From: a virus
Taxonomy: Duplodnaviria; Caudoviricetes
Length of the DNA stretch: 34,136 bases
IMG/VR virus record: IMGVR_UViG_3300033067_001496
Span: 1 to 34,136 of that record
Reading direction: 5' to 3' (one strand)
Position 1 is the stretch's first letter, and the number at the start of each line of letters is the position of its first letter. Shown piece by piece: positions 195-25,964 of the stretch. The notes below the pieces were generated by a model. The model saw nothing but the letters and a program-made list of their open reading frames with translations, made no database searches and was not told the DNA's origin. The translations under genes and the position numbers were made by a program.

Positions 195-272
195 CAATGA
201 TGAGACTATTTCAATAAATTCTATATTTAGTATAGACAGGACTTTGCATTGTACGTCAAGATATCAAAATCT

Positions 273-4158: not shown

Positions 4159-4243
4159 AAAAAAGGACAGACGGATGGTCTGTCCTGCCCCTATAAGGGA
4201 ACGGTCAATATATTTCTTGTAACAGAAAGATGGTTATAGTCAA
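4159..4243 (-). promoter_or_regulatory. Promoter plus attenuator leader, copy D
   Basis: TTGACTATAAC..TGACC-GTT-CCCTTATAGGGG-CA-GGACAGAC-CATCC-GTCTGTCC-T6. Confidence 0.85.
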
Positions 4244-4248
4244 CTTAT

Positions 4249-7200
4249 TTAAAGTTTTAACTTTTTAACTTTAACTTTTTTTATTTTCTTAGACTTTGAT
4301 ATTTTTATTTTTTTAGATTTTCCACCGCCTAATCTAAACTTTTTATATTTAATGGTCTTCAATTTGCTCCCTAATTGATCAGCTGTAATTTTATTAGCTT
4401 GAAAATCTTTGAGCGCTTGATTTGACTCAGATGTTAGTGATCCTGTTTCTTTGTTTTTTTTCAATTGCTCATATGATCTTACCTGCGAAGTTTGAGAGCC
4501 TGATCTAACTTGGGCTTTAAAACGTTGAAGTTCTAAATCTCTTGTCATTTTTCGAGCTTGATCATCAGTGATTTTCCCAGAAGTATTAAGATTTATAATG
4601 TCTGATATTTGACTATTTAATTGTGTTGAGTAGTCTTTTAGTAAAACAGAATCTACATCTGGTTGACCTGTTAATTTAGGAACTGGAACAGGTGTTAGAT
4701 CAGCTGTTTTTAACTTTCCATCAGAACCAATATAATATTGAGCATTAGGGTTATTTTCTAGTTTTTGTATCTGTTTAATACCTATTTCTTGTGGAATGTC
4801 TCCTCGATTTACTCCACCTTTAATATCATTAACCTGAAATTTAACTGCCTCCTGTTTTTTCTCATCAATTGCCTGTTGTTCTTCTGGAGTTCTTTTTTGT
4901 CCACCTATGAACCGTCTTAATATTGGAGCTTTATTGATAATTTCACCCTGATTATTTTGATCGCTCTTATATTGATCTGGTACTAATGGATTAACTACAG
5001 TAGAACCTATCTTTGCCCATCCTGTAGCGTAACCCTCTATCATGTTTTGAATTTTAGCGGGCGACACACCAATTTTGTCTCCAATCATTTTGTATATCGG
5101 TGACGTGTATGAAGTAGATTGATATCCTGCTGGATAATTCTTTTTATAGTCAGGCACAATTTGCTGACCGCTAAAGAAACTATAATTGGCTGCGTTTTCT
5201 GCCAAAGGTCGAAGTGTTGTTGGTATAAGGTCTCCAGAATTATCTATTGGAGAAAACGCCTTTAATGAAGCAATAAGCGACTTTTGTACATCTCCGCCTT
5301 TCCCTTCTGCAAACGACATAAAATTTTCTATTGGATTTGCCAGTTTTCCTATTTCACCTTTGGGAATTTTTACGTATTGAGCTCCTCCCAGTTGAGGGAT
5401 AGGAGTATCACTTAGCATGATGATAAAGTTGCTATCTTTGTCGCTTTGAGATACAACTCTTGGATCATTGTATGACTGAAATCCTCGGTTATGAGCGTAG
5501 AGAGCCATGGCTGGAGCTGCGGTTATCATTCCTATTCTTAATGAAGCTCCTGCAGGGTCATTTTTAACAGTTCTTAAAAGTCTATCAATGCCTTGAACGC
5601 GAGCATTTAAAAACGCATATATAGCATTTATAGATTGTGTTTTAGATCCTCTTCGTGCAAAATTAACTGTTCCTTCCTGAGCTGCATTAGCTGCTCGAAT
5701 AGCTGCTTCCTGTGGATTCAAACCTTGTTTAATACCTTTCTTTAATGCGTCTTCAAACATTGAAATTCGAGTAGGTTGCTCAGAATATTCACCTAGCGCT
5801 TGAAGAACGTGCACAATTGAACTTGGTTTAGGCAAAGATAATCCTTTGTTTCCTGTTATGTCCTCTACTGTGTTACGTAAAAAGGGTCGATCTAGAGCAA
5901 CTCGTGAGGTCATACCGCCAGATTTTAAGAAGTCCTGATAAACAGAATCCTGTTTAATCATGTGAGCCAAGCCACTAACCCACTTTAAAGGGTTAAGTCC
6001 AGTATTAACAAACGCACTTTGTAAGTCTCTAGCTACGTTCGGAGCCATAAATTCAGGATTTAACCCCGTAGCTGAGGCTCTAAATATTTTAGTTGGAAAC
6101 GCAAGAATTTTTACAATTGTATTTAATGCTTCTTCGGATAATCCTTTTGCTGCATCTGCAACTTCTTGTGGAACTGCATAGTGTTCAACTTTCCCATTTT
6201 CGAACAATGCAATATTTGATTGATTACCTACAGGGCCATTTATTTTTTTAATAGTTCCTTCTGGAAGTTTTGGAGCTAGACTAACCAAGGTCTTAGCTAC
6301 TTCTTGTCGTTTCGCAAGTCCAACCATTTTATAGGTAGCTTCTACAATACTTTCTATAGGATCTTGAATTGCTTTATCACTTCCCTTAATTCCCTTTACA
6401 ACATCCTGACTAGATATTGATCCGGCACCCTTAGCTGGTGTCATGCCTAAAAATGTATCGACTTGATCCATTACACGTTTAAAGGGAACATAAAACTGAT
6501 TTTTTTTCTTCATTGCGTTATATGATTCCTTACTCATAATGCCAGTATCAACAAGATAAGTTTTTGTCATAGTATCTTGATACTGATAAAGTTTAGTTAA
6601 TGTCTGGCCCAATGCTTTAGTCTTTTCTGGACCTAATTTTTCCTGTAATTTTCTTAATACACTTAACGCATTTACAGATTGAGAATCGAGTTTTTTATCT
6701 CCAGCCAATGACTGAATATCTTCTACAATATTACTTCCTCTGATGCCTCGCTTTGCCAGTTCTAAATCCCGCATGGCAATAGCTGCTGATCGTAAATCTC
6801 CTATGTCATGCTCTTTTAAAATAGGAGCAAGTTCAAAATCTACATGATACTGTCCTATCGATCCCGTTCCATAATATCCCGTCATAGCATTCCTCATGGC
6901 CTGATCTTCTCCTGCTTTGTGTGCAACTTGTGATAACGGATTAAACCTGTCAATAGCCTCAGTGTAAAACTTGTTTACTTTTGATTTTATTCCGTCCAGA
7001 AAAGTATTGGAGTTGTTTTGTGGTATACTTCCAGGCAATGAAAGAGGTTTTTCTGGTGGCATCCCTGATCCTCCCTGTGACGTTTGTAGCTCTTGGCCTA
7101 CTCGCAACAGTTCTTGTCCCTGTTTCGCTGCTTCGGATGTGGTGGAAGCGTTCCCAACGTCCGGTAGTGCTAAAGCTGTTCCTGCTGTTTCTGGGACTGG

Positions 7201-8298
7201 TATGTCTGTATTACTGGCTGCAGGCAGCATGGGGTTCTTCTTTTTCCCAGCCATGGGGTTACTAACCTCTGCGCCAAAGTTTATAAATCCACCTTCGTTA
7301 CCACCTAGGTATTGTTTCCACAATGGGAGTACAATCCTTTTTCCAGTTTTAGGATCTACATCGGTTGTTGCTATTGGAGTATTAAGATGTTTTATCCATC
7401 CTTGAACGTATGAAGAAGACTGTCCTAGGTGTTGAGCTATATTATTTACTATGGCCCCTCCCACATCTCCACTGGTTTGAGATAAGGCACCTACAACTAG
7501 TCCAAAAGCCGCCTGATCTGTAGCATTTTTAATTCTATCTTGCGTACCTGGCTGTAAAAGTCCCGTAAATCCAGACTCAAGACCATTTTTAACAGAACTC
7601 ATTGCCCCTCGTTTAAGGACTTCTCCTCCAAATGATCGTCCTATACCCGTCAGAGGAGAATTAGATAATTCTTTAGCAAATAAAGGATTAACCTGACCTA
7701 ACGCATTATATTGGGCATTTTGTTCATATCCTTTTGAAAAGTTTTTTGCATAATCTTGAAATAAAGGACGATTATTTAGCGCATTATCTACCGCTCCAAA
7801 TCCTATATTAGTAAGTCCACCAAACGCATTCGCTAAAGGATTTGCTTCACCTGCAAATCTTAATCCACTGTATAAATCATTAGCCTGACTATTCTGATTT
7901 TGAGACTGCCATTTAGTTATCTGATCAGTAATTGGTTTTGAATAGTCAATTTGAGTAAGAGGAGCGAGATATATACCTAGTTGTACTGGGGGTGAAGTGC
8001 GTACAGCTGCTGCAGCCTCTCCTGGTAGACGCTGGATAGTATCTTGAGCTGTTTGTCCAATGATGTTTCGAAAGGGATCTGTGATTTGTTGTGCTAGATT
8101 TCTATCCTGTGGAACGGGAGAGACAGTAGGACGAATAGAATCACCTACAAATTGAGAGAAATCATTGACGGTGTTTTGAATCTGTGGGCCTATTTTAGAG
8201 GCTATATACGGTATAGGTGCAGTATGAAGCGTGTCAGAAAGTTTCTGACCTATTGGAGCTAATTTCTTTTTGTATTCTTCAATAAGATTGATAGACAC
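4249..8298 (-). CDS. Large internal virion/ejection protein with LPD38-like C-terminal region
   Basis: 1349 aa, GTG start with GGAG SD; EGTVNFARRG, YVKIPKG, LRPLAENAANYSFFSGQQIVP resemble LPD38-containing large polyvalent proteins; Lys-rich tail. Confidence 0.7.
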   Translation of the reverse strand: MSINLIEEYKKKLAPIGQKLSDTLHTAPIPYIASKIGPQIQNTVNDFSQFVGDSIRPTVSPVPQDRNLAQQITDPFRNIIGQTAQDTIQRLPGEAAAAVRTSPPVQLGIYLAPLTQIDYSKPITDQITKWQSQNQNSQANDLYSGLRFAGEANPLANAFGGLTNIGFGAVDNALNNRPLFQDYAKNFSKGYEQNAQYNALGQVNPLFAKELSNSPLTGIGRSFGGEVLKRGAMSSVKNGLESGFTGLLQPGTQDRIKNATDQAAFGLVVGALSQTSGDVGGAIVNNIAQHLGQSSSYVQGWIKHLNTPIATTDVDPKTGKRIVLPLWKQYLGGNEGGFINFGAEVSNPMAGKKKNPMLPAASNTDIPVPETAGTALALPDVGNASTTSEAAKQGQELLRVGQELQTSQGGSGMPPEKPLSLPGSIPQNNSNTFLDGIKSKVNKFYTEAIDRFNPLSQVAHKAGEDQAMRNAMTGYYGTGSIGQYHVDFELAPILKEHDIGDLRSAAIAMRDLELAKRGIRGSNIVEDIQSLAGDKKLDSQSVNALSVLRKLQEKLGPEKTKALGQTLTKLYQYQDTMTKTYLVDTGIMSKESYNAMKKKNQFYVPFKRVMDQVDTFLGMTPAKGAGSISSQDVVKGIKGSDKAIQDPIESIVEATYKMVGLAKRQEVAKTLVSLAPKLPEGTIKKINGPVGNQSNIALFENGKVEHYAVPQEVADAAKGLSEEALNTIVKILAFPTKIFRASATGLNPEFMAPNVARDLQSAFVNTGLNPLKWVSGLAHMIKQDSVYQDFLKSGGMTSRVALDRPFLRNTVEDITGNKGLSLPKPSSIVHVLQALGEYSEQPTRISMFEDALKKGIKQGLNPQEAAIRAANAAQEGTVNFARRGSKTQSINAIYAFLNARVQGIDRLLRTVKNDPAGASLRIGMITAAPAMALYAHNRGFQSYNDPRVVSQSDKDSNFIIMLSDTPIPQLGGAQYVKIPKGEIGKLANPIENFMSFAEGKGGDVQKSLIASLKAFSPIDNSGDLIPTTLRPLAENAANYSFFSGQQIVPDYKKNYPAGYQSTSYTSPIYKMIGDKIGVSPAKIQNMIEGYATGWAKIGSTVVNPLVPDQYKSDQNNQGEIINKAPILRRFIGGQKRTPEEQQAIDEKKQEAVKFQVNDIKGGVNRGDIPQEIGIKQIQKLENNPNAQYYIGSDGKLKTADLTPVPVPKLTGQPDVDSVLLKDYSTQLNSQISDIINLNTSGKITDDQARKMTRDLELQRFKAQVRSGSQTSQVRSYEQLKKNKETGSLTSESNQALKDFQANKITADQLGSKLKTIKYKKFRLGGGKSKKIKISKSKKIKKVKVKKLKL

Positions 8299-8307
8299 AT
8301 ATACTCC

Positions 8308-9345
8308 TTAGAAGCTAAGTCCACCAGATAGTAACGCTGATTGAGCATCTAGCCCCTGTTTTTTCCGTGGATCTTCCGTTAACCCCACTTGTCGAGGGTT
8401 AAGTCCCTGAGATGTGGGTATTAACACATTATTAGTAAAATCCATGTAGTTAAAATCAGGGTTTTTATAAGCTTCTAATTGGCCAGCTTCCTGCAAAAGT
8501 TGGAGTTTTTGAGCATCAACCTTAGCTTTAATTGTTCCTTGAGCCTGTCTGATTTCAGCAATCCTTTGGGACAAAGCGGCATTTGCTGCGTTAATGGCAT
8601 CCGTGCGTTGTCGATCACTAAACCGCATATCATTTTGAATATTACCTTTTAGAGTTTCGTATTGATTTTTTAATGTATTTAAAAGATTTGTATGTTCACT
8701 GGTCTTTTGATTCAAAAAGTCATCAAGCTGATTTGTTCTATCTTGATACGCTTGTACGTAATCCGCACGAATCTTCCCAAACTCATTGATAGGTTTGCTA
8801 AGTAATTCCCCTGCAGCACTGGAATTTAATATTCCTAATGCTCGAAGTGTATTTCTATTAGATCTCTGCGCTGACTGCGCTGCAGCTCCAGCTTGTTCTA
8901 TATTTTTGTCTCGTGCCTGTTCTGCTCCGACTTTCTGTTGACCCACCTGACTCTGGATACCTTGAAAATCCGTATTTGCCTGATCGATTCCTGTATTATA
9001 GTCACCTGTAAGTGAATTTAATTGGTTATTTCCCTGAGCTTGAAGGTAATCGAATTGATTATTTAATGCTGATAGTTCAGAAGCGTTATTCGGAATGGGT
9101 GTACTTGTTGTAGGGTTTGATGTCCTTGCAACAGGAGCCTGTATTTGAGCAGACAAAACATCCCCCCCTGTAGTTAGAGAGGCTGGTCTCGTTCCTGTTA
9201 ATCCACCACTATTGTACGCTTGATTTACGTTCAAAGGAGATGCATTTCCGAATGAATACTGACTTAGTTGACCTGATTGTGCAGAAGAGGGATTATATAA
9301 TGATAAACCTCCTGAGCTTAATAGTTTGCTGTAGTCTAATGCCAT
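8308..9345 (-). CDS. Coiled-coil internal virion (ejection) protein
   Basis: Q/N/A-rich helical 345 aa with RALGILNSS motif; precedes the large internal protein. Confidence 0.6.
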   Translation of the reverse strand: MALDYSKLLSSGGLSLYNPSSAQSGQLSQYSFGNASPLNVNQAYNSGGLTGTRPASLTTGGDVLSAQIQAPVARTSNPTTSTPIPNNASELSALNNQFDYLQAQGNNQLNSLTGDYNTGIDQANTDFQGIQSQVGQQKVGAEQARDKNIEQAGAAAQSAQRSNRNTLRALGILNSSAAGELLSKPINEFGKIRADYVQAYQDRTNQLDDFLNQKTSEHTNLLNTLKNQYETLKGNIQNDMRFSDRQRTDAINAANAALSQRIAEIRQAQGTIKAKVDAQKLQLLQEAGQLEAYKNPDFNYMDFTNNVLIPTSQGLNPRQVGLTEDPRKKQGLDAQSALLSGGLSF

Positions 9346-9346
9346 A

Positions 9347-9355
9347 TGCTATAAT
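9347..9355 (+). promoter_or_regulatory. Extended -10 promoter for the CAP gene
   Basis: TGCTATAAT 9 nt upstream of ATG 9365; near-leaderless arrangement. Confidence 0.6.
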
Positions 9356-9364
9356 CCTATAGTA

Positions 9365-9835
9365 ATGAAATACTTTATTATATTTTTTCTTATTTTTGCT
9401 TGTATTGGAACATATATATACTTTTCACAGAAAATCGCTGCTGTGAACAAAAGTATTAAATATGTGGAATCAATTCCGACTCCTACTCCCGTATTTCTAA
9501 ACGCTGAAAAACTTATGAAACAGGTCAATGACTGGCGTGTTACACAAGGTCTTCATCAATATTTGATTAGTGACCAGCTATGTGAAATTGCAAATAAAAG
9601 AATCCCAGAAATCAGACAGGCTTATGGTCATGATAAGTTTGCCATCGACTATAAACACTTTCCTTACAAGATTTCTGAAAACCTTATGCAAGGGGGAATA
9701 GATGAAAAACAAACGCTAGACGCTTGGTTAGGATCTAAACCGCATAAAGAGACGCTTATGAAAGACTATAAGTTTACCTGCATTGCTACAGATGGAACGA
9801 ATGTCGTTCAAATATTTTCTTCTCTTGGTCAATAA
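9365..9835 (+). CDS. Membrane-anchored CAP/SCP-domain protein
   Basis: N-terminal TM, PTPTP linker, VNDWR..GL, SENL, W.GS.PH..L motifs. Confidence 0.85.
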   Translation: MKYFIIFFLIFACIGTYIYFSQKIAAVNKSIKYVESIPTPTPVFLNAEKLMKQVNDWRVTQGLHQYLISDQLCEIANKRIPEIRQAYGHDKFAIDYKHFPYKISENLMQGGIDEKQTLDAWLGSKPHKETLMKDYKFTCIATDGTNVVQIFSSLGQ

Positions 9836-9848
9836 TTTAATGTGCATT

Positions 9849-9929
9849 AAAAAACCACCATCTCTGGTGGCTTGCGTATTTAGTACGATCAGCTTTACTT
9901 GATTAAATCATTCTATTGCTTATAGTCAA
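9849..9929 (-). promoter_or_regulatory. Promoter plus attenuator leader, copy E
   Basis: TTGACTATAAG..AGCT-GAT-CGTACTAAATACG-CA-AGCCACCA-GAGA-TGGTGG-T6. Confidence 0.8.
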
Positions 9930-9944
9930 GCATTAATGAATACA

Positions 9945-11411
9945 CTAAATAACTGTACGAGATTTAAGGGGAACAATAGTAGAATATGCGGCCCCCGTTA
10001 TGGTTCCGGTATTCCCTAGACCTGATGAATCTGTTGCGGTGGTTCCTGATCCCTCATCTAGTTTATGATATGTAACTAGTCCTGATGTTGGAACGATTCC
10101 TTTATAGTAAAGATCTGAGACCTCTGTAGAACTTAATGCTCTAGACCATGAAATACATTCGTCCAAACTTCCAGTATGCGATCCTGCTGTGGTGTTCCGT
10201 TTTAAACATCCCCATGTCGTCAAATTGAATGTATATGGCGTTGCCTGTAGAGCGAATGTCTGAGTTGTATCTACACCATTGCAATATACTTTGACTGCCC
10301 CTGCGTTAGATGTGATAGTTATATGTTGCCATACACCAGCTTTTAAAAAATCAACTGTACCTGCCTGATCTCCTCCTGTATTTGCATCATTTTTATTAAA
10401 ACAATTCATCTTCCCTGCAGTTCCAATGTGAAATGCAATTATTTGAATAGCATTTGTACTGTTTGCCTCACTAAAGAAATACGTTCCTACGCTGAAATCT
10501 CTTATGTATGACCAGAAGCTTAACGTGAAAGTAGTCGATGCAGTAACGGGAAGTCCAGATGTCTGGGCAACGTCTATTCTATCTGTAGTATTACTCGCAA
10601 ATTTTAAACAAGTACCCATGTCTCGAACTAAAAATTTATTTGTGACTGCATTTCTTGGTTTAAATGCAACAAGAGATGAATATGTGGCTCCGGTAATTGT
10701 ACCTGTAAATCCGTTGCCAGAAGCGTCTGTTGTAGAAGAACCAGAGCCTTCATCAAATTCGTAGCTCAGAAAGATATTTGACGTGGGTGGAGCAGTCAGA
10801 TATGCGTTTAATACTTCTAATGACGATAGCCCTGTTGTATACAGTCTGAATTTATCTAAATATCCATTAAAAAATGTACCATTTGTGCCTTTGAAATTGA
10901 CAGCTCCTATAGCAAATGGAAATTCAAAATTAGAGAATGTAGACGGGGATTCAGATAAACTTGCAGTGATTGAAACTGATGCACCATCAAAATACAATAA
11001 TGCTGTATTAGTAGAGGGTGTAATAACTATAGCCACAAAATGCCATTTGTTATCATTAATATTTAAAGAGGATGTTGAAGCGAATTTGTAATTTTTAGCA
11101 TCCTGAGATCGAACGAATACACCTAAATATCCCTGAGTAAGTGTGTGTGAAGAGTCTGAATTTAGACGTACCCAGAACGCCGTTGGATTAGCCCCTCCGG
11201 TATTGTTCGCTTCTCCGCAGATTATGTCCTGTGTCGTTGATCCTGTCTTTATCCAAAAAGAAATAGTAAACGTAGACGCTAAATAAGTACTACCAAAAGA
11301 AGATAATGTGGTGGCTGCCACTACGTCTGAAGTTCCATTAAACTTAAGACAGGTTCCAAAATCCCGTATCAGAAGTCTTTGTGTATTTGTTGATGATCGG
11401 ATATCTATCAT
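9945..11411 (-). CDS. Tandem LamG/ConA-like virion protein
   Basis: Two repeats, each starting RD(F/M)GTCLKF, with FT(I/L)SFW and W.(F/H) motifs, ending DEGSG..TD.SG.G.TGTITGA.YS. Confidence 0.85.
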   Translation of the reverse strand: MIDIRSSTNTQRLLIRDFGTCLKFNGTSDVVAATTLSSFGSTYLASTFTISFWIKTGSTTQDIICGEANNTGGANPTAFWVRLNSDSSHTLTQGYLGVFVRSQDAKNYKFASTSSLNINDNKWHFVAIVITPSTNTALLYFDGASVSITASLSESPSTFSNFEFPFAIGAVNFKGTNGTFFNGYLDKFRLYTTGLSSLEVLNAYLTAPPTSNIFLSYEFDEGSGSSTTDASGNGFTGTITGATYSSLVAFKPRNAVTNKFLVRDMGTCLKFASNTTDRIDVAQTSGLPVTASTTFTLSFWSYIRDFSVGTYFFSEANSTNAIQIIAFHIGTAGKMNCFNKNDANTGGDQAGTVDFLKAGVWQHITITSNAGAVKVYCNGVDTTQTFALQATPYTFNLTTWGCLKRNTTAGSHTGSLDECISWSRALSSTEVSDLYYKGIVPTSGLVTYHKLDEGSGTTATDSSGLGNTGTITGAAYSTIVPLKSRTVI

Positions 11412-11413
11412 AG

Positions 11414-12646
11414 TTATGGATAACTTTTAAATGCAAAATCTACCGGTGCTGTATAAGATGTATATAAGTTACCCGTTGTTGTGGGTGTACCAAAGCTCCA
11501 TATTAATTTCATAGAAGAATGACCGTTCACGACTAACGTAGATTTGACATTTACTTTTGTAGATGTACCATCTGTAGTGATTGTTTCTGCAAGGCTCCAT
11601 GTCTGACCTGTATCGATAGATCGATATCTCACAATATTCCCACCCTGCCAAGTTGATGGGTTTGTCCCTATTTGTGCGTAAATATCAATAACTGAATCGC
11701 TAATAACATCCATCTTTAATTCATCAAATTGGTATCTTGTAGCTGAAGAAACAGTCACCGGAGAAGTCCAAGCAGAACCGTTATAGCGAAGAAATTGTAT
11801 ATTTTTATTTGAGTTTAAATTCCATGCTAAATAAGGACGGTTATTAGAATCTAGTTTCATGTCGCCTGGAAAAGCTCCTGTAGCTTCAAGGGTTTCTAAA
11901 TTTGTTTCATCAACAGGTAGGCTGTATGTAGTCCCGTCGGCTTTTTTCCATGTAGTACCACCATCAAGACTCTTCATATAGCAGGAATTTCCAAAAGGAT
12001 CAGTTGGTTGAGCTAATGATGGTCGATAATTAACTATTATATGTATAGAAGGAGGTGTTTCGGTACCAATTCCAACCCCATACACATAAGGGGTATTTCC
12101 AGCTGCAGAAGCATTTAATCTCGTATTACTTGTCCATGTAGCGCCACTATCAGTACTTTTGACTATATATGTTCCTAAAGGTGATGTACTTCTATAGATT
12201 ACATATATAGTGTTATCGGGCATCACAAATGGCATAGGGTACGTAGCTGAAGTTGCCCCAGTCACGTTAGTTTTACTTCCCCAAGAAGTTACGTCGTAAG
12301 CACGTGTAGATTTTCTAAAAAATAATTGGTTGGTATGACACCCATAAAATACATATAGATATCCGTTGTTATCTATACACATGTATGGCCCGTTATGGTC
12401 GATGTCTGCAGGACTACTATAGTCTGATTTAGACCCTACTTGATAAGCTATTCCTGCAGAAGATCCTCCAGCGCTGTTAATATCAGCTATCATTACATTC
12501 CCCCCAGCATCAGTCCAAGGGAAATATGTATGTCCATTTTTATATACTGCTGCTGGATATGAACCTGTAGCACAGGCACGAATATCTGGATTTGAGTAGA
12601 CTAATCCGTTGGTATATCGGGTTGATCCGATTAATTGCCGCGCCAT
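11414..12646 (-). CDS. BNR/Asp-box beta-propeller protein (sialidase-like fold)
   Basis: Asp boxes STDSGATW, SLDGGTTW, SIDTGQTW; DHNGP..ID..GYLYVFYGCH and ATYP motifs (BNR_4-like). Confidence 0.8.
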   Translation of the reverse strand: MARQLIGSTRYTNGLVYSNPDIRACATGSYPAAVYKNGHTYFPWTDAGGNVMIADINSAGGSSAGIAYQVGSKSDYSSPADIDHNGPYMCIDNNGYLYVFYGCHTNQLFFRKSTRAYDVTSWGSKTNVTGATSATYPMPFVMPDNTIYVIYRSTSPLGTYIVKSTDSGATWTSNTRLNASAAGNTPYVYGVGIGTETPPSIHIIVNYRPSLAQPTDPFGNSCYMKSLDGGTTWKKADGTTYSLPVDETNLETLEATGAFPGDMKLDSNNRPYLAWNLNSNKNIQFLRYNGSAWTSPVTVSSATRYQFDELKMDVISDSVIDIYAQIGTNPSTWQGGNIVRYRSIDTGQTWSLAETITTDGTSTKVNVKSTLVVNGHSSMKLIWSFGTPTTTGNLYTSYTAPVDFAFKSYP

Positions 12647-12647
12647 G

Positions 12648-12905: not shown

Positions 12906-12914
12906 AGTTTCTCC

Positions 12915-13460: not shown

Positions 13461-13462
13461 AT

Positions 13463-13550
13463 AAAAAAAGACAGCCTGTATGGCTGCCCTGCGTTTTAAA
13501 ACGAACGGACTATATTAAGGGTAGAGTAGTATAAAGAGAGTTAAAGTCAA
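13463..13550 (-). promoter_or_regulatory. Promoter plus attenuator leader, copy C
   Basis: TTGACTTTAAC, 16-bp spacer to TACTCT; GTCC-GTT-CGTTTTAAAACG-CA-GGGCAGCC-ATACA-GGCTGTC-T7-AT-ATG. Confidence 0.9.
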
Positions 13551-13553
13551 ATA

Positions 13554-13907: not shown

Positions 13908-13908
13908 A

Positions 13909-16666: not shown

Positions 16667-16667
16667 A

Positions 16668-17357: not shown

Positions 17358-17444
17358 AAAAAAAGACGGCTTCTTTCGAAGTCGCCTGCGTATATATACG
17401 AACGGTGATTATATTGACCGTACCAAATAGTTAGTTAAAGTCAA
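17358..17444 (-). promoter_or_regulatory. Promoter plus attenuator leader, copy B
   Basis: TTGACTTTAAC, 16-bp spacer, TGG-TACGGT; TCACC-GTT-CGTATATATACG-CA-GGCGACTTC-GAAA-GAAGCCGTC-T7-ATG. Confidence 0.9.
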
Positions 17445-18433
17445 TTCATGAGCGATAAATATGCTTTTTCCCATTCTACAATATGTTTTTCCAAACTGTA
17501 CCATCCCGTAACATTTCCATGAGCTTTAAAAGATATGTCTTCCCGTAATTCCTTACTGATGATCATATTTTTAATACATCGATACCAGTGATCTACGTCT
17601 AATGCCACGAGCCCAAAATTTCCATCAAAATGTTTATCATCATAGACCGTAGGTGAATACACACCCGGTATTCCAGCAAGTGCATATTCATAATATTTGA
17701 TTCTAGATTTACACTTATTAAAGTCGTTATGAACTAATGGCGCCAATGCTATATCCAGTCTTAGACCAGAAAGTTTTGTCGGCCACACGTCCCATGGAAC
17801 TCCAAACATACACTCTACAGGTAATCCAGATAGCAATTCTTTTACTCTGGTCTCTCCTACAAATATGAATTCTATTTGAGGGAATTCTGTATATATTTTA
17901 CGGAGCGCAGGAGCTATCATTTCCAAATCTTTCATATGTGTGATAGAACCAGCCCAGCCTATACGTAACGTTTTACCTTCGTTTTTATATTTAACTGGAG
18001 TATCCCAACGTTCTAAATCAGGATAATTAGGAAGAATAACGACATTATTATTGAACTTTTTTAGTTGTTTTGCCAGATATTCATTAGTAGTCGTGACCAT
18101 ATCAGCAATTTCTAATGTTTTTTGTATAATTTCAGGAGCATCCGAAATCTGGTGTTCCTTCAAAAAGGGATTATGTTCTTCTACTTTGAGTCTATCATCC
18201 ATATCAACAACAATCTTTTTCCCTTTTTCTTGTTGGTACGCATATAATTCAGCTATTCCTTTTTTATCAACACACCCGTGTAAAACGAATACATCATTAT
18301 TTTTAATTACATCATCAGTTATTCCCCCATCAACTACGTGAGCATCCCATCCCTTTTTCTGAAGGTATTTGAATGGGTCATAAAGTCTCCACATAGAGGA
18401 ACCTGATGGTGATGGAAAAGAGCGTATTTTCAT
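17441..18433 (-). CDS. Glycosyltransferase, GT-B fold (GT4-like)
   Basis: VVDMDD, ADMVTTTN.YL, IGWAGSITH..DL, DIALAPL..FN.CKS.IK.YEY; start moved to 18433 (ATGA overlap). Confidence 0.85.
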   Translation of the reverse strand: MKIRSFPSPSGSSMWRLYDPFKYLQKKGWDAHVVDGGITDDVIKNNDVFVLHGCVDKKGIAELYAYQQEKGKKIVVDMDDRLKVEEHNPFLKEHQISDAPEIIQKTLEIADMVTTTNEYLAKQLKKFNNNVVILPNYPDLERWDTPVKYKNEGKTLRIGWAGSITHMKDLEMIAPALRKIYTEFPQIEFIFVGETRVKELLSGLPVECMFGVPWDVWPTKLSGLRLDIALAPLVHNDFNKCKSRIKYYEYALAGIPGVYSPTVYDDKHFDGNFGLVALDVDHWYRCIKNMIISKELREDISFKAHGNVTGWYSLEKHIVEWEKAYLSLMN

Positions 18434-19056
18434 GATCTTTCCTCCAAAAAATCCGTAACATAGTGCCATTCAACATCTGAGGGAAGTTTAAGTATATTTA
18501 CCAGACAATCGTTCAGGTTATTCGCTGAGGGTAAATCCATATGACCATGGAGCTTTAGGACGTCGTCGGGTGAATTCCAAAACTCTTCGTCAATAGAATA
18601 GTTATATTTATAGAATTTTTTTGGACATATCATGTCTTTCTGATTTCTATCTATAGCACCCCACCATCCGTATTCATTTAATACAGTGACTACTTCCTGA
18701 TTCCAAAGCCAAAACGGGGCACAAAATCCCTTTTCGAACGGAATTCCATCTTTATCAAATATTTCGTGCATATTATCGATGATCATTTTCATAGAATGCC
18801 TGTCACAATTCTCAAATTCTCTAGGCATATGGGTTACACCATGTGGAATAATCTGAATCCAATCTAAGTTTTCTTTTATTCTTTTGAGTTCCATATCTCT
18901 ATATATTCTTTGAACAGATTTTTCGAAGGTATAATCAAAAGGAATGGTAAACATGGATACTTTGAACGTGGGATAGCGATCTTTAATTTCCAGAAGTAGA
19001 TCAAGCTTATTATTTAGTACACTAAAATCATGAATATCTAAGCTTACGTGTTTCAT
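18430..19056 (-). CDS. Polysaccharide deacetylase-like protein (NodB/DUF2334-like)
   Basis: DIHD, SMFTIP, HGVTH, GFCAPFW, LHGH. Confidence 0.7.
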   Translation of the reverse strand: MKHVSLDIHDFSVLNNKLDLLLEIKDRYPTFKVSMFTIPFDYTFEKSVQRIYRDMELKRIKENLDWIQIIPHGVTHMPREFENCDRHSMKMIIDNMHEIFDKDGIPFEKGFCAPFWLWNQEVVTVLNEYGWWGAIDRNQKDMICPKKFYKYNYSIDEEFWNSPDDVLKLHGHMDLPSANNLNDCLVNILKLPSDVEWHYVTDFLEERS

Positions 19057-19655
19057 ATTTTTTTACCTACCGCCATTATCACCAACAGATGCTCCTGATT
19101 GGGTAGATATATAAACTGGTGTCTCCCAAAACCATTTTCTTTATAGAGTTTTTCTATATCTTCGTGCTCAAATTCATACATGTGTTCAGGGGACTGTATA
19201 TGTGAACCACTTGGAGTGGTTATAACGAATTTACCACCCGTTTTTAACACTCTATGAGCGTCTCTAAAGAGGTCAGAAGGCTCATCTAAGTGTTCCAGCA
19301 CTTCACCACTGAATACAAGGTCAAAATAGTCATTGGGTAACTCTGTTTGATTTCCAACTATCTGTTGAAAGTACTTTATACTCGAATTCTCTCGTTTATT
19401 TTGATCTATAACTTCTCCTGATATGTCAGTTCCCCACACTTCACAATTAGGGAACATTCCTTTTACCAACGTAGTAAATTGTCCTATCCCACACCCTATA
19501 TCTAAGACTCTGTCTCCATCTTTTATTTCATCCATTGTGCGTAAGAAGCGTGATGTACCTGTTTCTTTTTCGTAGGCAATACGATTTTCAGTACCTGTAT
19601 ACCGATTATTCCAATAGAAATTAGTATTAGGGTTGATATCTTGTAGTTTTTTCAT
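19053..19655 (-). CDS. Class I SAM-dependent methyltransferase
   Basis: VLDIGCGIG, GTDIS, FDLV..EVLEHL, LKTGG; probable start MKKLQ at 19655. Confidence 0.9.
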   Translation of the reverse strand: MKKLQDINPNTNFYWNNRYTGTENRIAYEKETGTSRFLRTMDEIKDGDRVLDIGCGIGQFTTLVKGMFPNCEVWGTDISGEVIDQNKRENSSIKYFQQIVGNQTELPNDYFDLVFSGEVLEHLDEPSDLFRDAHRVLKTGGKFVITTPSGSHIQSPEHMYEFEHEDIEKLYKENGFGRHQFIYLPNQEHLLVIMAVGKKI

Positions 19656-21027
19656 GTTTTCTTTTCTCAAAATACTCAGGAAATCGAGCATGTTGACCCT
19701 CTGTTCCTTCATAATGTTGAGCGAAGTAATTTTCTAAGTACGCCATTTGATATCCTTTAGAGAGAAGATATTGAGAGAATTCTAAGTCCTGCATCCCGTG
19801 AAGAAAGTCATTCTCATTCCACCTAAAATCCTTATAAGCTGAGGCATCTACGAAGTGACAAATTCCTCCTATGTGTCTGGTCAACCCAAGAAATTCACCT
19901 TTAATTTTTCCAAAATCAATTCTTTGAGCTCCGCCAGGGTTATCTTTTAATCCCTCAATATAGCAAGATAGGGCCATGCGACGATTAGATTTCCATATCT
20001 CCACCATTTTCTCCAGCCACCCGTTAGATTTGAAATAACAGTCATTGTCTATTTTTATAATGATATCGTATGTTCCTGTTTTATATATTTCTTCTATTGC
20101 GATATTGGAAGCTTTTGATATACCTTTATTTACTCCGTTCGAAATTAACGCTTTTGAATGCCAAGAATCATTAAGCCATTCATAAGTTCCGTCTGTAGAG
20201 CCGTTATCTACTATAAAATGATCATATGGGTATCCGGCTGTTCTCTCTAAACTTTCGAAACATGTTTTTGTATATTCGAGCCTGTTATATGTGATCGAAT
20301 AGATTGCTACTTTTGGTTCTTTCACTTCACCCAGATACGGTAGCTGAATCTCAACATCAAATGCGTCCCATGCAGGTTCACTAAATCCCTTCTCATCTAG
20401 TTTCTTTTGACTCTTCATATCCTTATGAAGGTGGTAATCAGTAAGAAGCAGAGGTACACGCTTAAATATATACCCACACTTAGCCATTCTTACCCAAAGA
20501 TTCCAGTCAACATACTTTTTATACCGCTCATCAAACCCCCCAACATATTTAAGTGCTTGTTTTCGGATTAAAGCGTCAGAAGTATCTATATAATTTCTTC
20601 TCATTAAAGAAAAAGGATTAAAGTCTGAAGCGTACCCAATTTGATCTACAATTTCTTTTGTTTCATCTATTATCCATCTGTCTCCATAAGCTACCGATAC
20701 ATCAGGATAATTCTGTAAACACTTGTATAACGCGTTTAAATGGTCAGGACGGTACTCACAGTCATCATCGAGGAATGCTATAAACTCACCTTTAGCAAGT
20801 TTTATCCCTGCGTTCTTTGGTTTTGTATCTGTTCCGGAATTTCTCGTGAGTCGTGTATAAATAATTTTTGGATCGTTTAAGCTTGCAATGTATGCTTGAG
20901 TACCATCAGTTGAATGATCGTCTGCAATAATGAGTTCCCAATCAGTGAAGGTTTGATTTTTAACAGACTGTATAGCCTTTTTAAGACGGTCTAATCGATC
21001 AAATGTGCTGATAATTACACTAATCAT
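19627..21027 (-). CDS. Double-domain GT2 glycosyltransferase
   Basis: SVII..DDHSTDGT..AFLDDD and a second domain YNR..VDNGSTDGT..KIDND. Confidence 0.9.
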   Translation of the reverse strand: MISVIISTFDRLDRLKKAIQSVKNQTFTDWELIIADDHSTDGTQAYIASLNDPKIIYTRLTRNSGTDTKPKNAGIKLAKGEFIAFLDDDCEYRPDHLNALYKCLQNYPDVSVAYGDRWIIDETKEIVDQIGYASDFNPFSLMRRNYIDTSDALIRKQALKYVGGFDERYKKYVDWNLWVRMAKCGYIFKRVPLLLTDYHLHKDMKSQKKLDEKGFSEPAWDAFDVEIQLPYLGEVKEPKVAIYSITYNRLEYTKTCFESLERTAGYPYDHFIVDNGSTDGTYEWLNDSWHSKALISNGVNKGISKASNIAIEEIYKTGTYDIIIKIDNDCYFKSNGWLEKMVEIWKSNRRMALSCYIEGLKDNPGGAQRIDFGKIKGEFLGLTRHIGGICHFVDASAYKDFRWNENDFLHGMQDLEFSQYLLSKGYQMAYLENYFAQHYEGTEGQHARFPEYFEKRKHEKTTRYQP

Positions 21028-21028
21028 A

Positions 21029-21352
21029 TTATCTGAACCCTAATGGGTCTTTTTTCATTTGTTCTTTACGCCATGCTGGTTTATCTTTTGCCCAGCTTTT
21101 TTTCCGATCCTCTTCCCATCGTCTGAGTTTAAGACTAGTTTTAGTCCATTCTTTCCGTTCTGAATCGAATATATCTGCGGCTTGTCGTTCTTTTTCTGGG
21201 TCACCGATGGTGATGTACTTTTCTGTAGAAGCCCAAGGAATTGAAGTTTTAATGTATGGGATACCTTTTTTGTTTTTAAGTATAACTGCTGGCCTATCGT
21301 CTGAGTCTTCAACATATTTATGATACCCTTCGCGGATTTTTACCCATTTCAT
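21029..21352 (-). CDS. Hypothetical basic protein
   Basis: Start moved to MKWVK at 21352, 6 nt after the leader F U-tract. Confidence 0.65.
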   Translation of the reverse strand: MKWVKIREGYHKYVEDSDDRPAVILKNKKGIPYIKTSIPWASTEKYITIGDPEKERQAADIFDSERKEWTKTSLKLRRWEEDRKKSWAKDKPAWRKEQMKKDPLGFR

Positions 21353-21358
21353 ACCAAT

Positions 21359-21452
21359 AAAAAAGACACCTTCCCTTTCGGGTTGGTGCCTTGCCTGCAA
21401 TGCAGGAACAGACTACTTAGTATTGTATAGCACATCTGTTGACTTTGTTCAA
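21359..21452 (-). promoter_or_regulatory. Promoter plus attenuator leader, copy F
   Basis: TTGAAC, 17-bp spacer, TGC-TATACA; GTCT-GTT-CCTGCATTGCAGG-CA-AGGCACC-AA-CCC-GAAA-GGG-AA-GGTGTC-T6. Confidence 0.85.
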
Positions 21453-21472
21453 GTTTTAGGCTAATTGCAAAC

Positions 21473-21508
21473 AAAAAAGCCTCTAGAGGTATGTCCCCTA
21501 GAGACTTT
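21473..21508 (-). terminator. Intrinsic terminator after the major capsid gene
   Basis: AAAGTCTCTAGGGG-ACATA-CCTCTAGAGGC-TTTTTT. Confidence 0.85.
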
Positions 21509-21532
21509 ATTTGTCGTAGAGATCTACCAGTT

Positions 21533-22507
21533 TTACGCGGTAGAACTTACTGTGTGATGAGCGTTCACAAAGAAAGCTGTGTTAAGCGGTGCAGCACCGA
21601 AAGTTGTTTTCCAACCTGCGGTAGCAATTTTCTCTGTTGGATCGCCCGTACCACCTGAACTAAAGCCTTTAACAAATGTTTGAAGGTTCTGTAATTCAGT
21701 TACACCGAAAGCATCCTGTCCAAAAAATGATGTAACGTAGATGGAAGATGAAGATGTTACTCCAGTATTTCTAACGTATCCGTTAGAAGAAACTAAGAAT
21801 CGTGTACCCATCAATTTTCCAGCTTCGCTTGTCATTAATTTGTTCGAGTTTGGATCTGTGTATTTGTTTGCGTCAATCCATCCACCAGTCGTTGTATCGG
21901 CTTGTAAGTCGTACAAAGAATCAGGATGAATAACAGCAGCCCATGATCCGTCCGGCAACTGCATTGCGTCGTTTCTCTGAAGTGTTCGGTTTGCACGTCG
22001 TACTTCAGTGATAGTCATCGTTCCAGTTACAGGAATAGATGTCCATGCAGCTCCAGCTACACCAGTTGCAGCTTGGAGTGTACCAGCGGTAGACACAATG
22101 TTACGGATAATAGTATCAATAGAAAGACCTGCATTGTATGCAAGACGTTCTACAGCTGATTTCATAACATCTCCAAAACTCGTATATGCGAGTAAGTCAG
22201 AGATAGAAACTGCAGCGTCGTATTGTGCTGTTGATCCGGTTACGTTCGTAGCCGTCATTGAAATTGCTGTTGTTGGGACTCCTTCTCCTTGCCCTGCGGT
22301 AACGATAGGAAGATTACTCCAGCGAGTCCAATACACAACACCTGTACCATAACCCCCAGCTCCTTTTTCAATTTTTCGATTTGTCTGTCCCAGTTGTTTG
22401 AAAACTAGTTTAGACTCAGCAACTCTTAAAAAAAGCTGATCATAGTATCTACTTTTGATAGCCTGTGAAACGGTTGTCGTTGTTGATTTAGCGGTATCTA
22501 ATGCCAT
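21533..22507 (-). CDS. Major capsid protein (N4-gp56-like, HK97 fold)
   Basis: YYD..FL, EGV.T, QY...VSISD, AVIHPD..YDL, EAGKLMG.RF, GQDAFG, DP..K..TAGWK; strong SD GGAGGTG. Confidence 0.9.
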   Translation of the reverse strand: MALDTAKSTTTTVSQAIKSRYYDQLFLRVAESKLVFKQLGQTNRKIEKGAGGYGTGVVYWTRWSNLPIVTAGQGEGVPTTAISMTATNVTGSTAQYDAAVSISDLLAYTSFGDVMKSAVERLAYNAGLSIDTIIRNIVSTAGTLQAATGVAGAAWTSIPVTGTMTITEVRRANRTLQRNDAMQLPDGSWAAVIHPDSLYDLQADTTTGGWIDANKYTDPNSNKLMTSEAGKLMGTRFLVSSNGYVRNTGVTSSSSIYVTSFFGQDAFGVTELQNLQTFVKGFSSGGTGDPTEKIATAGWKTTFGAAPLNTAFFVNAHHTVSSTA

Positions 22508-22536
22508 AATTTAATTCACCTCCCCCAGTAGTAGGA

Positions 22537-23280
22537 TCACCACTGACCGGTGGCTTTTAGATGTGCTTCCATTTGTTCCAAAGTCATATTGTTTGGATCT
22601 ACATTTGTCTTCACTCTACTGACCACACGATTCGTAATGCCCTGGTCAGATTGTTGGGATTTCACAATCCGTGCCTCTTGATTTGCTTCCGTAACTCTGG
22701 CTCCTAAAGATTTAGCGGTAGCAACTGCGCGTCTTGCTGCCTCTGTTCGCGTGATTCCAGGGTTAGCAGCTAAAATAGTTGCTCCTAATGAATCAAGCTC
22801 TTGAGAATATTCAGAGCTATTGGGATCAAACTGCGGCAATGTTGTCTTCAAGAGTTCAATCTCAAGCAAGTCAGTCTTATCAACTGGTTTAACTTTTGAT
22901 TGGGTCTTAGGTTCTAGGAACTGTTGACCCTGAGCAATCTTCGATTTGATTGATTCAAGCTCCTGCAAGGCTTGGGTTGCCTTACGCTCACTTTCTTTCA
23001 TCTTCCCGTAGACTTTGCTGAATCTCTTTTCAGGAACATACCTTTGTCCTGCTTCATCTTCTGCAACTTCTTCATCAGTTTTTGTTTCTTCAGTAGCCTT
23101 GGGTAGCTCTGAGTCCTCAACAACTGGTGCTTCTGTTTCAGGTTCTGTAACAGTCGTTTGTTCTTCGGGTGCTGTCGTCTCGATCGCTGTATCTGTTTCA
23201 GCGTTTGGTTCGCCATTCTCATCAGTCACAAAGTGACCATTGAGGGCTGCAGCTAACTGGCTCATAGTGTCATCTGACAT
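22537..23280 (-). CDS. Capsid scaffolding protein
   Basis: Acidic N-terminus, VP..RF..V coiled coil, C-terminal MTLEQME helix; directly upstream of MCP. Confidence 0.8.
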   Translation of the reverse strand: MSDDTMSQLAAALNGHFVTDENGEPNAETDTAIETTAPEEQTTVTEPETEAPVVEDSELPKATEETKTDEEVAEDEAGQRYVPEKRFSKVYGKMKESERKATQALQELESIKSKIAQGQQFLEPKTQSKVKPVDKTDLLEIELLKTTLPQFDPNSSEYSQELDSLGATILAANPGITRTEAARRAVATAKSLGARVTEANQEARIVKSQQSDQGITNRVVSRVKTNVDPNNMTLEQMEAHLKATGQW

Positions 23281-23388
23281 ATGGCCTCCTTTCTTTTGCG
23301 AGGTTGTAAGTCAACCAGGAACCTCCCATAAACATGATCATGGTTACGTACCAAGAACGAGTGTCTTGTGAACACTGAACAAAAACCG

Positions 23389-23652
23389 TCAGTTTCTATT
23401 CAACGTTCGCAAGTCGATCACTATTCCATCCTTTACTCGGTAATATCCAGCTATCATCGATCCCCATGGACAAAAATCGCATGAAATTGTGCCGTCAGGA
23501 TTGGCTGTATATCCTTTATGTTCCATCCAGTTATCTTTGGTATGTGTTGAACAGATATCAATTTTTACTGGACTATGTGTTTCTTTTTGAGCTCCATCCC
23601 AAAACTCGTCATTACTCTTGGGCAGAGCCGCTGGCCTTTTGTCGTTGTTCAT
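23389..23652 (-). CDS. Hypothetical protein, possibly Zn-binding
   Basis: CSTH..H..CDFC. Confidence 0.6.
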   Translation of the reverse strand: MNNDKRPAALPKSNDEFWDGAQKETHSPVKIDICSTHTKDNWMEHKGYTANPDGTISCDFCPWGSMIAGYYRVKDGIVIDLRTLNRN

Positions 23653-23914
23653 TTAATTTTTCTAAGGCTTCGTCTATCTCTCCAACTAATTGTCTGAGAG
23701 CATTAACTTGACCTCTCGCAAGATTAAATTCTTCTAATGATTTGTAACCGGTAATAATCGCTTCATTGGCAAAGGCTTGAATCTTGTTTTGTATGTACGC
23801 CTTCATATATGACCATCCTTGTGTTGTCGTCATTTGTTCTAAAGCTCCAGCACGTGCCAAGATTTCATTCTCGGCTTCCTGGTATTTCTCTTTTTGTTCA
23901 TCAGGAACCTGCAT
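23612..23914 (-). CDS. Small helical post-portal protein
   Basis: T.GW and ARGQV.AL motifs; SD GGAGG; typical position after podovirus portals. Confidence 0.65.
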   Translation of the reverse strand: MQVPDEQKEKYQEAENEILARAGALEQMTTTQGWSYMKAYIQNKIQAFANEAIITGYKSLEEFNLARGQVNALRQLVGEIDEALEKLNEQRQKASGSAQE

Positions 23915-25877
23915 ATGATTGACCTCCTGTCTGATTTGTTGACATATCTGGTAATGGATTTTCTAATGGTTGTCCTATCATTTGATCAATTGCGGCTTGA
24001 TCCATTGGCTGACCTTGGGATGGTTGTCCTTCGGGAGGTGGTGGTTGGACTTGTGGAATATCTACAACAACACTCTTAGATTCTAAAGCCAAATGTAGTT
24101 TTTCAAATCCTTCTTCTGTAAGCGTCGTGTAGTCAAGCATTTTCTTTTGTCCTGCCAATCCTTGTGCCCATGCCGGTGTTGAGAATCGTTCGATAGCAGT
24201 AAAGAAATTTTCTTGAAGAGCAATAGGATCGTTTAACTGATCGCTTGAAACGGCTGAAACGAAGTCATAATCACCGACTATTGCTGGTTGTATATCATCT
24301 GGTAACAAATTGAGAAATGCAAAGGATTCGTCCTGTCCTATTTCTAGCTTAGCTTTCTTTTCGAGGTCTCCTGGTATGATGGGATTTCCCTCCATGTCTG
24401 TTTGAGACAACTTAGTATTCTCTTTCAGGTACCTTACGGCATCTTGTCCCATAATACGTAACATCTGTTTTTCTGTGGTGTACTGAACTCGTAAATCTTT
24501 CCACTGATTGGCTATGCGTTGAATAACCATGTGATTAAACAGTTGAATCTTTAGCTTGAATTGAGCGTTTGCTTCCTGTTGAATGAGGCGTGTGCCGGTT
24601 GCCGTCTTATTTGCTACAGAATCGTTGTTAATTCCTACGGTGTAGTCAGTTATTCCAGACCCGTTCTGCATCGCACTCGTGAGGTAGTTCATTGTTTGAA
24701 CGAATGTCGCTCCAGTTACGTCTGGGACGTTGAGCATTTCAACTGCATTCATGTCATCGGTTGTAACTACATTCCCAGGAGCTGAAAATAGTGTGTGCAT
24801 GTCCACACCTGATTTCTTTTTCACTTTCCACATAGAGCGAAGTACAAGTTGAACGTTGTCTAATCGTTGATTTAGAACTGCGTTAATAGCTCTCTGGATA
24901 CGATCTACGGGCTCTATTTCTCCCATGCCGTATAATTCACCTGGATATGGATAGTCTGTACCGTACACAAGCGGTAATTCACCGTGAAAATAAGGGTTAT
25001 CTACTTCACGTATGACAACGTCATATTCAGAAGCAATTTCGCACCATCCATCTGGAGTGAGTTTATGAAGTACAACTATTTCAGGATTACTTTCATCTTT
25101 TCCGATGAATTCCTGTGTAGATAGCATTATTCTTCTGTGACTTCTAAAATATAAATCTTGAGGATTACTTGTTTTATTTGCTGTTTTTGCTTTGATTTTT
25201 TGTTCTAATACGTCTAGATTCTTATAGTATTCAGATCCTCTTGCGTCGTTGATTGCCCGTAGTTCGTCGACTGTTTTAAACGTCCGATATACAAACCAAC
25301 GCATATTATCGAGTCCGGTAGCGTTTGGATCAGGGAAGCAATCGTATATGTTAAATAGCTCGTAGTTAGGCCCATCAAACTGAGTGACTTTGACCATCTC
25401 TTTATTTGTTGGTGTCCATACAACACGTCCATTTACTTTCTTTGGCTTCATCCGTGGTTTTTCTTTTTCTCGATAGTCCCAGTAATTTCTACCGAAGAAC
25501 GTACCAAAGATAAGCATTGATTTAACTGAATTGACGAGTTTTGGAAACATCTCAGCTCTGCGCCAGTCATATTTAACTAAAGAATTGAGGATGTGGGCGG
25601 TGGCACTATCTCCACCTTCTTGAGGATAAAACGATCCAGTAGGCTCATTAGCTACCATACGTGGAGTAATAGTTTCGATTACTCGAAATATACGAGGATC
25701 AAAAACCATTGCATTGTGGGGGTAGTTATTAGGGTCAAGATAAGAACGATACAATTCTTCCTGTTTATTCATCCGTTCATGAATAGGGTCAAGATATTGT
25801 TTAGACAATTGATATTGACATTTAGATTCTTCAATAACATCGTCTTCACTTTTATTTCTGGTGTTATAATTTGCCAT
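23901..25877 (-). CDS. Portal protein (P22-like)
   Basis: 658 aa; MLIFGT..YWD, FPDP.A, YG.G..E....Q..IN, TAT, Pro/Gln-rich tail; follows terminase. Confidence 0.9.
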   Translation of the reverse strand: MANYNTRNKSEDDVIEESKCQYQLSKQYLDPIHERMNKQEELYRSYLDPNNYPHNAMVFDPRIFRVIETITPRMVANEPTGSFYPQEGGDSATAHILNSLVKYDWRRAEMFPKLVNSVKSMLIFGTFFGRNYWDYREKEKPRMKPKKVNGRVVWTPTNKEMVKVTQFDGPNYELFNIYDCFPDPNATGLDNMRWFVYRTFKTVDELRAINDARGSEYYKNLDVLEQKIKAKTANKTSNPQDLYFRSHRRIMLSTQEFIGKDESNPEIVVLHKLTPDGWCEIASEYDVVIREVDNPYFHGELPLVYGTDYPYPGELYGMGEIEPVDRIQRAINAVLNQRLDNVQLVLRSMWKVKKKSGVDMHTLFSAPGNVVTTDDMNAVEMLNVPDVTGATFVQTMNYLTSAMQNGSGITDYTVGINNDSVANKTATGTRLIQQEANAQFKLKIQLFNHMVIQRIANQWKDLRVQYTTEKQMLRIMGQDAVRYLKENTKLSQTDMEGNPIIPGDLEKKAKLEIGQDESFAFLNLLPDDIQPAIVGDYDFVSAVSSDQLNDPIALQENFFTAIERFSTPAWAQGLAGQKKMLDYTTLTEEGFEKLHLALESKSVVVDIPQVQPPPPEGQPSQGQPMDQAAIDQMIGQPLENPLPDMSTNQTGGQSYAGS

Positions 25878-25964
25878 AAAAAAAGGACACAGATTATTTC
25901 TGTGCCCTGCGGTTTGTATCCGAACGGACTATCTAAGAAGTAACAGAAGATAAGTTAAAGTCAA
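25878..25964 (-). promoter_or_regulatory. Promoter plus attenuator leader, copy A
   Basis: TTGACTTTAAC..GTCC-GTT-CGGATACAAACCG-CA-GGGCACAGA-AATAA-TCTGTGTCC-T7-ATG. Confidence 0.9.

Follow-up and report, generated by a model that had tools for sequence, protein, structure and literature searches.

The window analysed here is the whole 34,136-nt stretch of the virus record IMGVR_UViG_3300033067_001496 (Duplodnaviria; Caudoviricetes), a linear record about 80% complete whose genes lie nearly all on the minus strand. The encoded set includes an SU10/P22-like portal, a capsid protein, glycosyltransferases, a methyltransferase, an LPD38 protein, lectin-like proteins and a CHAP endolysin, which suggests a short-tailed phage; the best capsid matches in annotated GenBank phages are about 30% identical. 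The host is presumably similar to bacteria of the Candidate Phyla Radiation (CPR), and a related contig sits in genome bin G016, where it is possibly misbinned. Six short intergenic leaders, lettered A to F by coordinate and all on the minus strand, and a 63-aa open reading frame (ORF) called c16, the candidate protein partner of these leaders, are the subject of this analysis:

4159..4243, minus strand: leader A; hairpin 4204-4184, terminator stem 4186-4164, T6; heads a 316-aa gene, a tail protein gene and the CHAP endolysin gene
9849..9929, minus strand: leader B; hairpin 9893-9870, terminator stem 9873-9852, T6; followed by an antisense ORF, then by the 345-aa and 1349-aa (LPD38) genes, with a predicted role in ejection
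13463..13550, minus strand: leader C; hairpin 13510-13486, terminator stem 13490-13468, T7; heads 181-aa, 85-aa, BNR-repeat and laminin-G genes
17358..17444, minus strand: leader D; hairpin 17405-17385, terminator stem 17387-17364, T7; heads a 229-aa ORF and a 637-aa virion protein gene, putatively adaptor and nozzle
21359..21452, minus strand: leader E; box TTGAAC, hairpin about 21413-21388, terminator stem 21392-21363, T6; lies downstream of the capsid-gene terminator (21508-21476) and heads a conserved 107-aa ORF, then glycosyltransferase and methyltransferase genes
25878..25964, minus strand: leader F; -35-like box 25964-25959, hairpin 25929-25904, terminator stem 25908-25884, T7, directly followed by the portal ATG
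25961..26152, minus strand: c16, 63-aa ORF; putative distant relative of DUF2292/YezD and candidate RNA-binding antiterminator

The leaders share one layout, in which a -35-like box is followed by a hairpin with a 3x2 internal loop and a constant C-G/CA core, and the hairpin overlaps a terminator; the hairpins are 21-26 nt long, the overlap is 3-5 nt and the T-runs are 6-7 nt. The first-pass annotation, made from the sequence alone, had described six minus-strand elements with a shared grammar and a U6-7 tract, and this description holds: a scan of the window for the grammar found exactly six on the minus strand and two plus-strand hairpins, both without a terminator, and the window has six hairpins followed by T6, whereas 100 dinucleotide shuffles average 0.05 and never exceed 1. 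By itself the hairpin stays within the range of chance: the window has 8, and 100 such shuffles have 3.2 on average and up to 8. No seventh copy was found by a covariance model that was run unfiltered and had the six leaders themselves in its training set; it returned the six at E <= 2e-5 and the next match at 0.46. A cmscan of the window against Rfam gave only a tRNA at E <= 1, in agreement with the annotation's statement that the motif was not a recognised one. Because the grammar was derived from the same six copies, its replication in relatives is the real test.

Several details of the annotation need revision. The lower stem does vary between CC/GG and CT/AG, but CT/AG belongs to B and E, not to E and F; the other four leaders (A, C, D and F) have CC/GG. 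The spacing from the start of the -35 box to the lower stem is 37-42 nt, not 39-44 nt, and the box is present in all six as claimed but reads TTGAAC, not TTGACT, in E. As for the gene blocks, glycosylation genes do lie behind E, although the conserved 107-aa ORF comes first, and the ejection-type genes assigned to B are not directly next to it, being separated by the antisense ORF. The -10 boxes of the window are weak (a consensus scan scores only the site of E and a shifted site at C), and we therefore infer the promoters. The -35-like box contains the TGA stop codon of the preceding gene at leaders F (25959-25964) and D (17439-17444), so that the leader terminators would also end upstream transcripts.

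Relatives were collected by capsid alignment and comprise 60 viral, 80 metagenome and 2 genome loci, duplicates included; sixteen longer records were read whole or nearly whole. Two genes of the window anchor the comparisons:

21533..22507, minus strand: major capsid protein; query used to find the relatives
23901..25877, minus strand: portal protein (SU10/P22-like); first gene behind leader F

At each of 260 distinct terminator-like sites the best upstream two-stem hairpin was taken by lowest energy, with no constraint on its letters. A 3x2 loop was obtained at 54 of the 102 sites with a TTG(A/C)(C/T) box versus 26 of the 158 without one, and CA on the 3' strand at 53 and 22 of these sites, respectively. 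The 3x2 CA hairpin is present at 81 of the 260 sites, and 76 of these copies begin the upper stem with a C-G pair; the remaining five were left out, and the counts that follow use the 76. Their loop triplet has A or G in first place in 69 copies, is variable in second place and always has U or A in third place, leaving only the C-G pair and the 3' CA constant across relatives. The annotation had proposed a GUU/CA loop as the recognition site; CA stands as a general feature, and since the 5' triplet varies, GUU/CA as a whole is this phage's version. The third lower pair, which was unused in the selection, is paired in 71 of the 76 copies compared with a shuffled mean of 38.8 (maximum 52 in 5000). 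In 54 copies picked for similar length and aligned by MAFFT, RNAalifold recovers the same structure with one 3x2 loop and 95% of cells are paired; the covariation check suggested by the annotation gave 120 two-sided changes versus 42.6 in shuffles and a covariation of 0.89 versus 0.27, counts that lean towards structure because the copies had been selected for it, which tells against our interpretation. Of the 76 copies, 57 are preceded at 34-52 nt by a TTGA(C/T) box, and 26 of these 57 have a TA...T box at a spacer of 16-18 (mean 7.2, maximum 17 by comparison). An exact-pattern scan of viral contigs yielded 26 loci that look like chance, most of them GC-rich and none with a terminator.

Copies from one record resemble each other in the loop triplet more than copies from different records do (0.65 vs 0.45, p 0.0005), which does not hold for the lower stem (p 0.27). 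The terminator stem has some within-record excess too (0.39 vs 0.32), so within-genome copying explains part of the triplet likeness. The 6 bases after TTGAC are likewise record-specific (0.56 vs 0.34, p 0.0005), also in a relative that lacks c16 (G006), in which an identical 11-mer heads four late genes in one stretch (L178); this extended -35 may be a second, DNA-level late signal.

The two folds of the leader compete, as the annotation had claimed, and their pairings exclude each other. In fragments ending just past the hairpin the lower stem pairs with a probability of 0.73-1.0, and the full leaders fold into the terminator, with a lower-stem pair probability of 0.05 or less. The terminator comes out more stable than the hairpin in 75 of the 76 homologous copies (the hairpin has a mean energy of -5.3 versus -12.4 kcal/mol), and in 73 of the 76 at least three of the shared bases are paired in either fold.

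Overlaps between a hairpin and a terminator control termination in the BglG/LicT systems, whose ribonucleic antiterminator (RAT) is 29-33 nt long with two conserved internal loops and a terminator overlap of 6-10 nt, according to the accessible parts of PMC5393181. The BglG/SacY/LicT RAT resembles the phage leader in that a hairpin of low stability, whose internal loop is asymmetric and whose apical loop is free, overlaps the 5' arm of an intrinsic terminator (accessible parts of PMC5393181, PMC3105407 and PMC12591593), and its protein partner is, in the portions available, similarly small at about 55-65 residues. The phage leaders differ from it in length (21-26 nt), in having one 3x2 loop and an overlap of 3-5 nt, and in use, as six parallel late leaders rather than at sugar operons. 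Thus, of the likeness to RAT sites put forward in the annotation, the overlap with an intrinsic terminator is retained, and the length, overlap size, two loops and CAT/PRD partner are not, Pfam giving no match to a CAT or PRD domain among the 53 window ORFs (about 20% of the genome is missing). Leader E possibly resembles the upper half of a RAT. ANTAR and HutP relieve a leader's intrinsic terminator in a protein-dependent manner, as proposed here, and their targets are dual hairpins, unlike the single hairpin of the phage (PMC12591593, in its accessible parts). Neither an ANTAR nor a HutP domain was found in the Pfam scan of the window. Phages also time their genes by terminator readthrough in lambda Q and N and HK022 put, where polymerase is modified processively from one site; late antitermination of the lambda Q type uses a Q-family protein and a single late promoter. 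In contrast, the phage described here has a promoter-like box for each block and a local, mutually exclusive RNA fold, and among its 53 window ORFs (the genome being incomplete) there is no match to the Q family, set against six promoter-like boxes. No description was found in the literature on this motif, on DUF2292/YezD or on phage antitermination of this kind, motif catalogues being readable in part, and terms for DUF2292 had no match in the searched part of the PMC10690425 supplementary files. The leaders are real and conserved and probably act as an RNA switch, a variant of protein-dependent antitermination whose partner family is likely new.

The candidate partner emerged from ORF clustering of 17 records, in 13 of which a gene of 62-85 aa lies between the terminase and the portal; outside the structural block, no other small gene on the same strand is as widely common to the 17 records (BLAST E 1e-4). 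The gene of the window, c16, sits just upstream of the portal leader, and its stop codon is inside the -35-like box of leader F. A word-indexed search gave 105 homologues and a representative search 106, and K18, P19, L21, E25, G34, R43, G45, V47 and W58 are conserved in at least 90% of 111 aligned rows. The AlphaFold2 model of c16 is helix-helix-strand-strand (predicted local distance difference test score 87.5); it has no match in PDB or BFVD at E <= 0.001 and no solved homologue. Neither c16 nor one homologue that passes as DUF2292 has a match in annotated GenBank phages. DUF2292/YezD (PF10055) resembles c16 in size, in the position of a helix-then-two-strands core and in weak profile and model similarity, and c16 differs from it by an extra N-terminal helix and by the lack of a PF10055 match of its own (Pfam cut-off 22 bits). 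At E <= 0.1, PF10055 matches 2 of 13 and 15 of 96 homologues (the 96 being drawn from the 106 listed), one of them over the cut-off; hhalign aligns c16 with DUF2292 over 30 columns at a probability of 38% (E 3.3e-4); and an Atlas model comparison gave a template modelling score of 0.59 to DUF2292 clusters, below the bar for naming. YezD itself is described in the accessible text of PMC3479203 as small and uncharacterized and as under repression by Spx and CymR.

The presence of c16 was set against leader presence at 41 distinct terminase-portal junctions, 36 with c16 (that of L047 lying farther upstream) and five without. Before the portal, the 36 junctions with c16 have a strict terminator in 31, a strict hairpin in 23 and either in 34. 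One of the five others, L068, has a divergent DUF2292-like ORF and is thus not a clean negative, so it was dropped, leaving G006, G011, G014 and L050/L101. A portal leader is found in none of these four c16-less phages (Fisher p 1.6e-4, hairpin alone p 0.026, both uncorrected for kinship). They are scattered on the portal tree, which requires 4 changes, at least 3 of them forced (bootstrap support is rough), and L050 is sister to the c16-bearing L063. A covariance model of the leader, R1, finds 2-7 copies (E <= 0.01, hand-counted after removal of overlaps) in 13 of 13 records with c16 and none at E <= 1 in the four negatives (G006, G011, G014 and L101), and whole-record searches of G006 (100% complete), G011 (94%) and G014 (59%) found neither c16 nor DUF2292. 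In the latter three, the same genes keep bare promoter-like boxes directly ahead of the ATG; as the ATG is only a few bases past the box, leaderless or near-leaderless late mRNAs are predicted. G012 was not used as a clean negative either: before its portal lies a 118-aa ORF (L205:6769-7122, minus strand) with, by eye, two DUF2292-type repeats and no profile match, after which comes a 3x2 CA leader whose first pair is U-A, and R1 gives one match at E 0.17. In the compared sequences, then, the gene and the leaders are present and lost together. The interpretation given in the annotation is supported, and the phage factor that it left unnamed has a candidate that co-occurs with the leaders.

We propose that c16 putatively binds the 3x2 loop of the hairpin so that transcription reads through all six leaders, a mechanism that we consider probable. 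Host RNA polymerase would start at the -35-like boxes and by default stop at the U-runs, giving a leader of about 45-55 nt in which, by computation, the hairpin forms ahead of the terminator but then gives way to it. After its synthesis from the end of the terminase gene cluster, c16 would hold the lower stem shut, and the base of the terminator beside the U-run could not form; one small protein would thereby time the late programme through six parallel gates. If this is true, it gives an uncharacterised small-protein family its first molecular function, and late-gene timing would need no phage polymerase, sigma factor or Q, only one 63-aa protein and six short RNA gates. Relatives lacking both gene and leaders would serve as natural knock-outs, and the parts are small enough for laboratory testing even with an uncultured host; the variation in the loop hints at RNA-protein switches that are orthogonal to one another.

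A number of observations weigh against this proposal. L028/G001 and L041 have c16 and no portal leader, the strict hairpin rule failed at 13 of the 36 portal sites, and the distant L068 has its DUF2292-like ORF yet neither a portal leader nor an R1 match. There are only four negative lineages, two of them partial (G014 at 59% complete and L101 at 21 of 29 kb), and R1 was trained largely on positive records. The protein is not basic overall (10 K+R, 11 D+E), its link to DUF2292 appears weak, if repeated, the -10 boxes of the window are poor, and a different factor could be encoded in the roughly 20% of the genome that is missing.

Of the other explanations, the one that fares best, though we regard it as unlikely, is a real switch whose ligand is a host protein or the product of a phage gene in the variable or missing early region, c16 being linked or acting indirectly. 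It draws on the incompleteness of the window, on the position of c16, which adjoins only leader F, and on the leaderless DUF2292-like gene of L068. The loss of c16, however, accompanies that of leaders at distant sites across the record, beyond F; outside the structural block no other small gene of that strand is as widely shared among the 17 records; and host DUF2292 genes adjoin a related hairpin, as described below. Marginally less likely is that c16 acts on RNA polymerase or promoter DNA by Q-like loading or activation, with the hairpin as a pause or loading element. The record-specific bases after TTGAC and the weak -10 boxes would fit such a role, but the extended -35 is conserved in the c16-less G006 and is therefore independent of c16, the covariation of the stems around a fixed loop points to RNA recognition, and the predicted c16 fold has neither a helix-turn-helix nor a structural match. 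It is also improbable that the leaders work free of any ligand, either as a fixed leak that sets gene stoichiometry or as a source of short terminated RNAs that are themselves the product (c16 decoys, for example): the hairpin is weak relative to the terminator, so most transcripts would stop, but a fixed leak requires neither the conserved C-G/CA loop nor co-loss with c16, and high output is needed from the portal and capsid genes. Least credible, and very improbable, is a translational switch in which the downstream hairpin masks the ribosome site and a protein exposes it. In its favour, the start codon is 0-4 nt past the U-run in 40 of 68 leaders, and the four window genes tested lack a Shine-Dalgarno sequence, against 24 of 37 other genes in the window that have one. 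In those 40 leaders, however, the arms of the terminator resemble a Shine-Dalgarno sequence no more closely than control terminators do (p 0.66), leaving a hidden site in the arm unsupported; among the 28 leaders whose start is distant, 13 have a Shine-Dalgarno of their own past the U-run, an arrangement that agrees better with termination than with masking of the ribosome site; in two host leaders the start is about 45-90 nt away; and the U-runs are conserved.

The proposed action of c16 on the hairpin may have a counterpart in CPR-like bacteria with small genomes. DUF2292 scored over the cut-off in 4 of 201 small genomes, and in three of the four cases the chromosomal gene (L210, L211 and L213) is followed by a near-identical 20-nt hairpin overlapping a terminator with a T-run, the terminator of L210 having been read by eye; the genes after these hairpin-terminators have signal-peptide-like starts. 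The fourth DUF2292 gene lies behind a terminase-like gene. The host hairpin has a similar lower stem but a 2x1 loop and an extra C-G pair, and R1 scores the host leaders poorly (best E 0.018), which marks them as a separate though related motif. We rejected the idea that the phage-type leader is a host element in general, since R1 matched only 5 of 151 small genomes (37 candidates scored in each); two of the matches are the phage contig of G016, and the other four have no leader context. A wider view, which we hold tentatively and at slightly under even chances, is that DUF2292/YezD-like proteins are unrecognised minimal RNA-binding antiterminators, that the phage opens up to seven late leaders in parallel, and that its loop, with a fixed CA and a record-specific triplet, differs from the DUF2292 switch of its probable CPR hosts such that the two would be orthogonal versions.

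A look-up of data sets containing the window listed no RNA set. Two DNA assemblies from one study showed no variant in the leaders that they cover, and one of these assemblies may be the source of the record. The terminase large subunit of the window consists of two overlapping ORFs (336 and 217 aa, 26162-27797), the second of which occurs in 8 of 17 records, with a single ORF of about 400-450 aa elsewhere. A glycosyltransferase and methyltransferase cluster, situated at 17441-21027 within the structural region of the window, is present in 17 of 17 records and may serve in virion or host-surface modification. At the record end, a tRNA-Ser(TGA) (105-195, plus strand) runs opposite in direction to the phage genes, and G001 has a tRNA at its record end as well, tRNA-Met; the end tRNA is possibly a phage tRNA or an attachment site, and a look-up of tRNA-Ser(TGA) for host assignment gave no host link. 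The ORF that follows leader B is the remaining feature:

9365-9835, plus strand: 156-aa antisense ORF, between leader B and the 345-aa gene; no Pfam family

Homologues of this ORF are present in 5 of 17 records, and in G002 the homologue is located upstream of the terminase; it looks like a mobile accessory gene.

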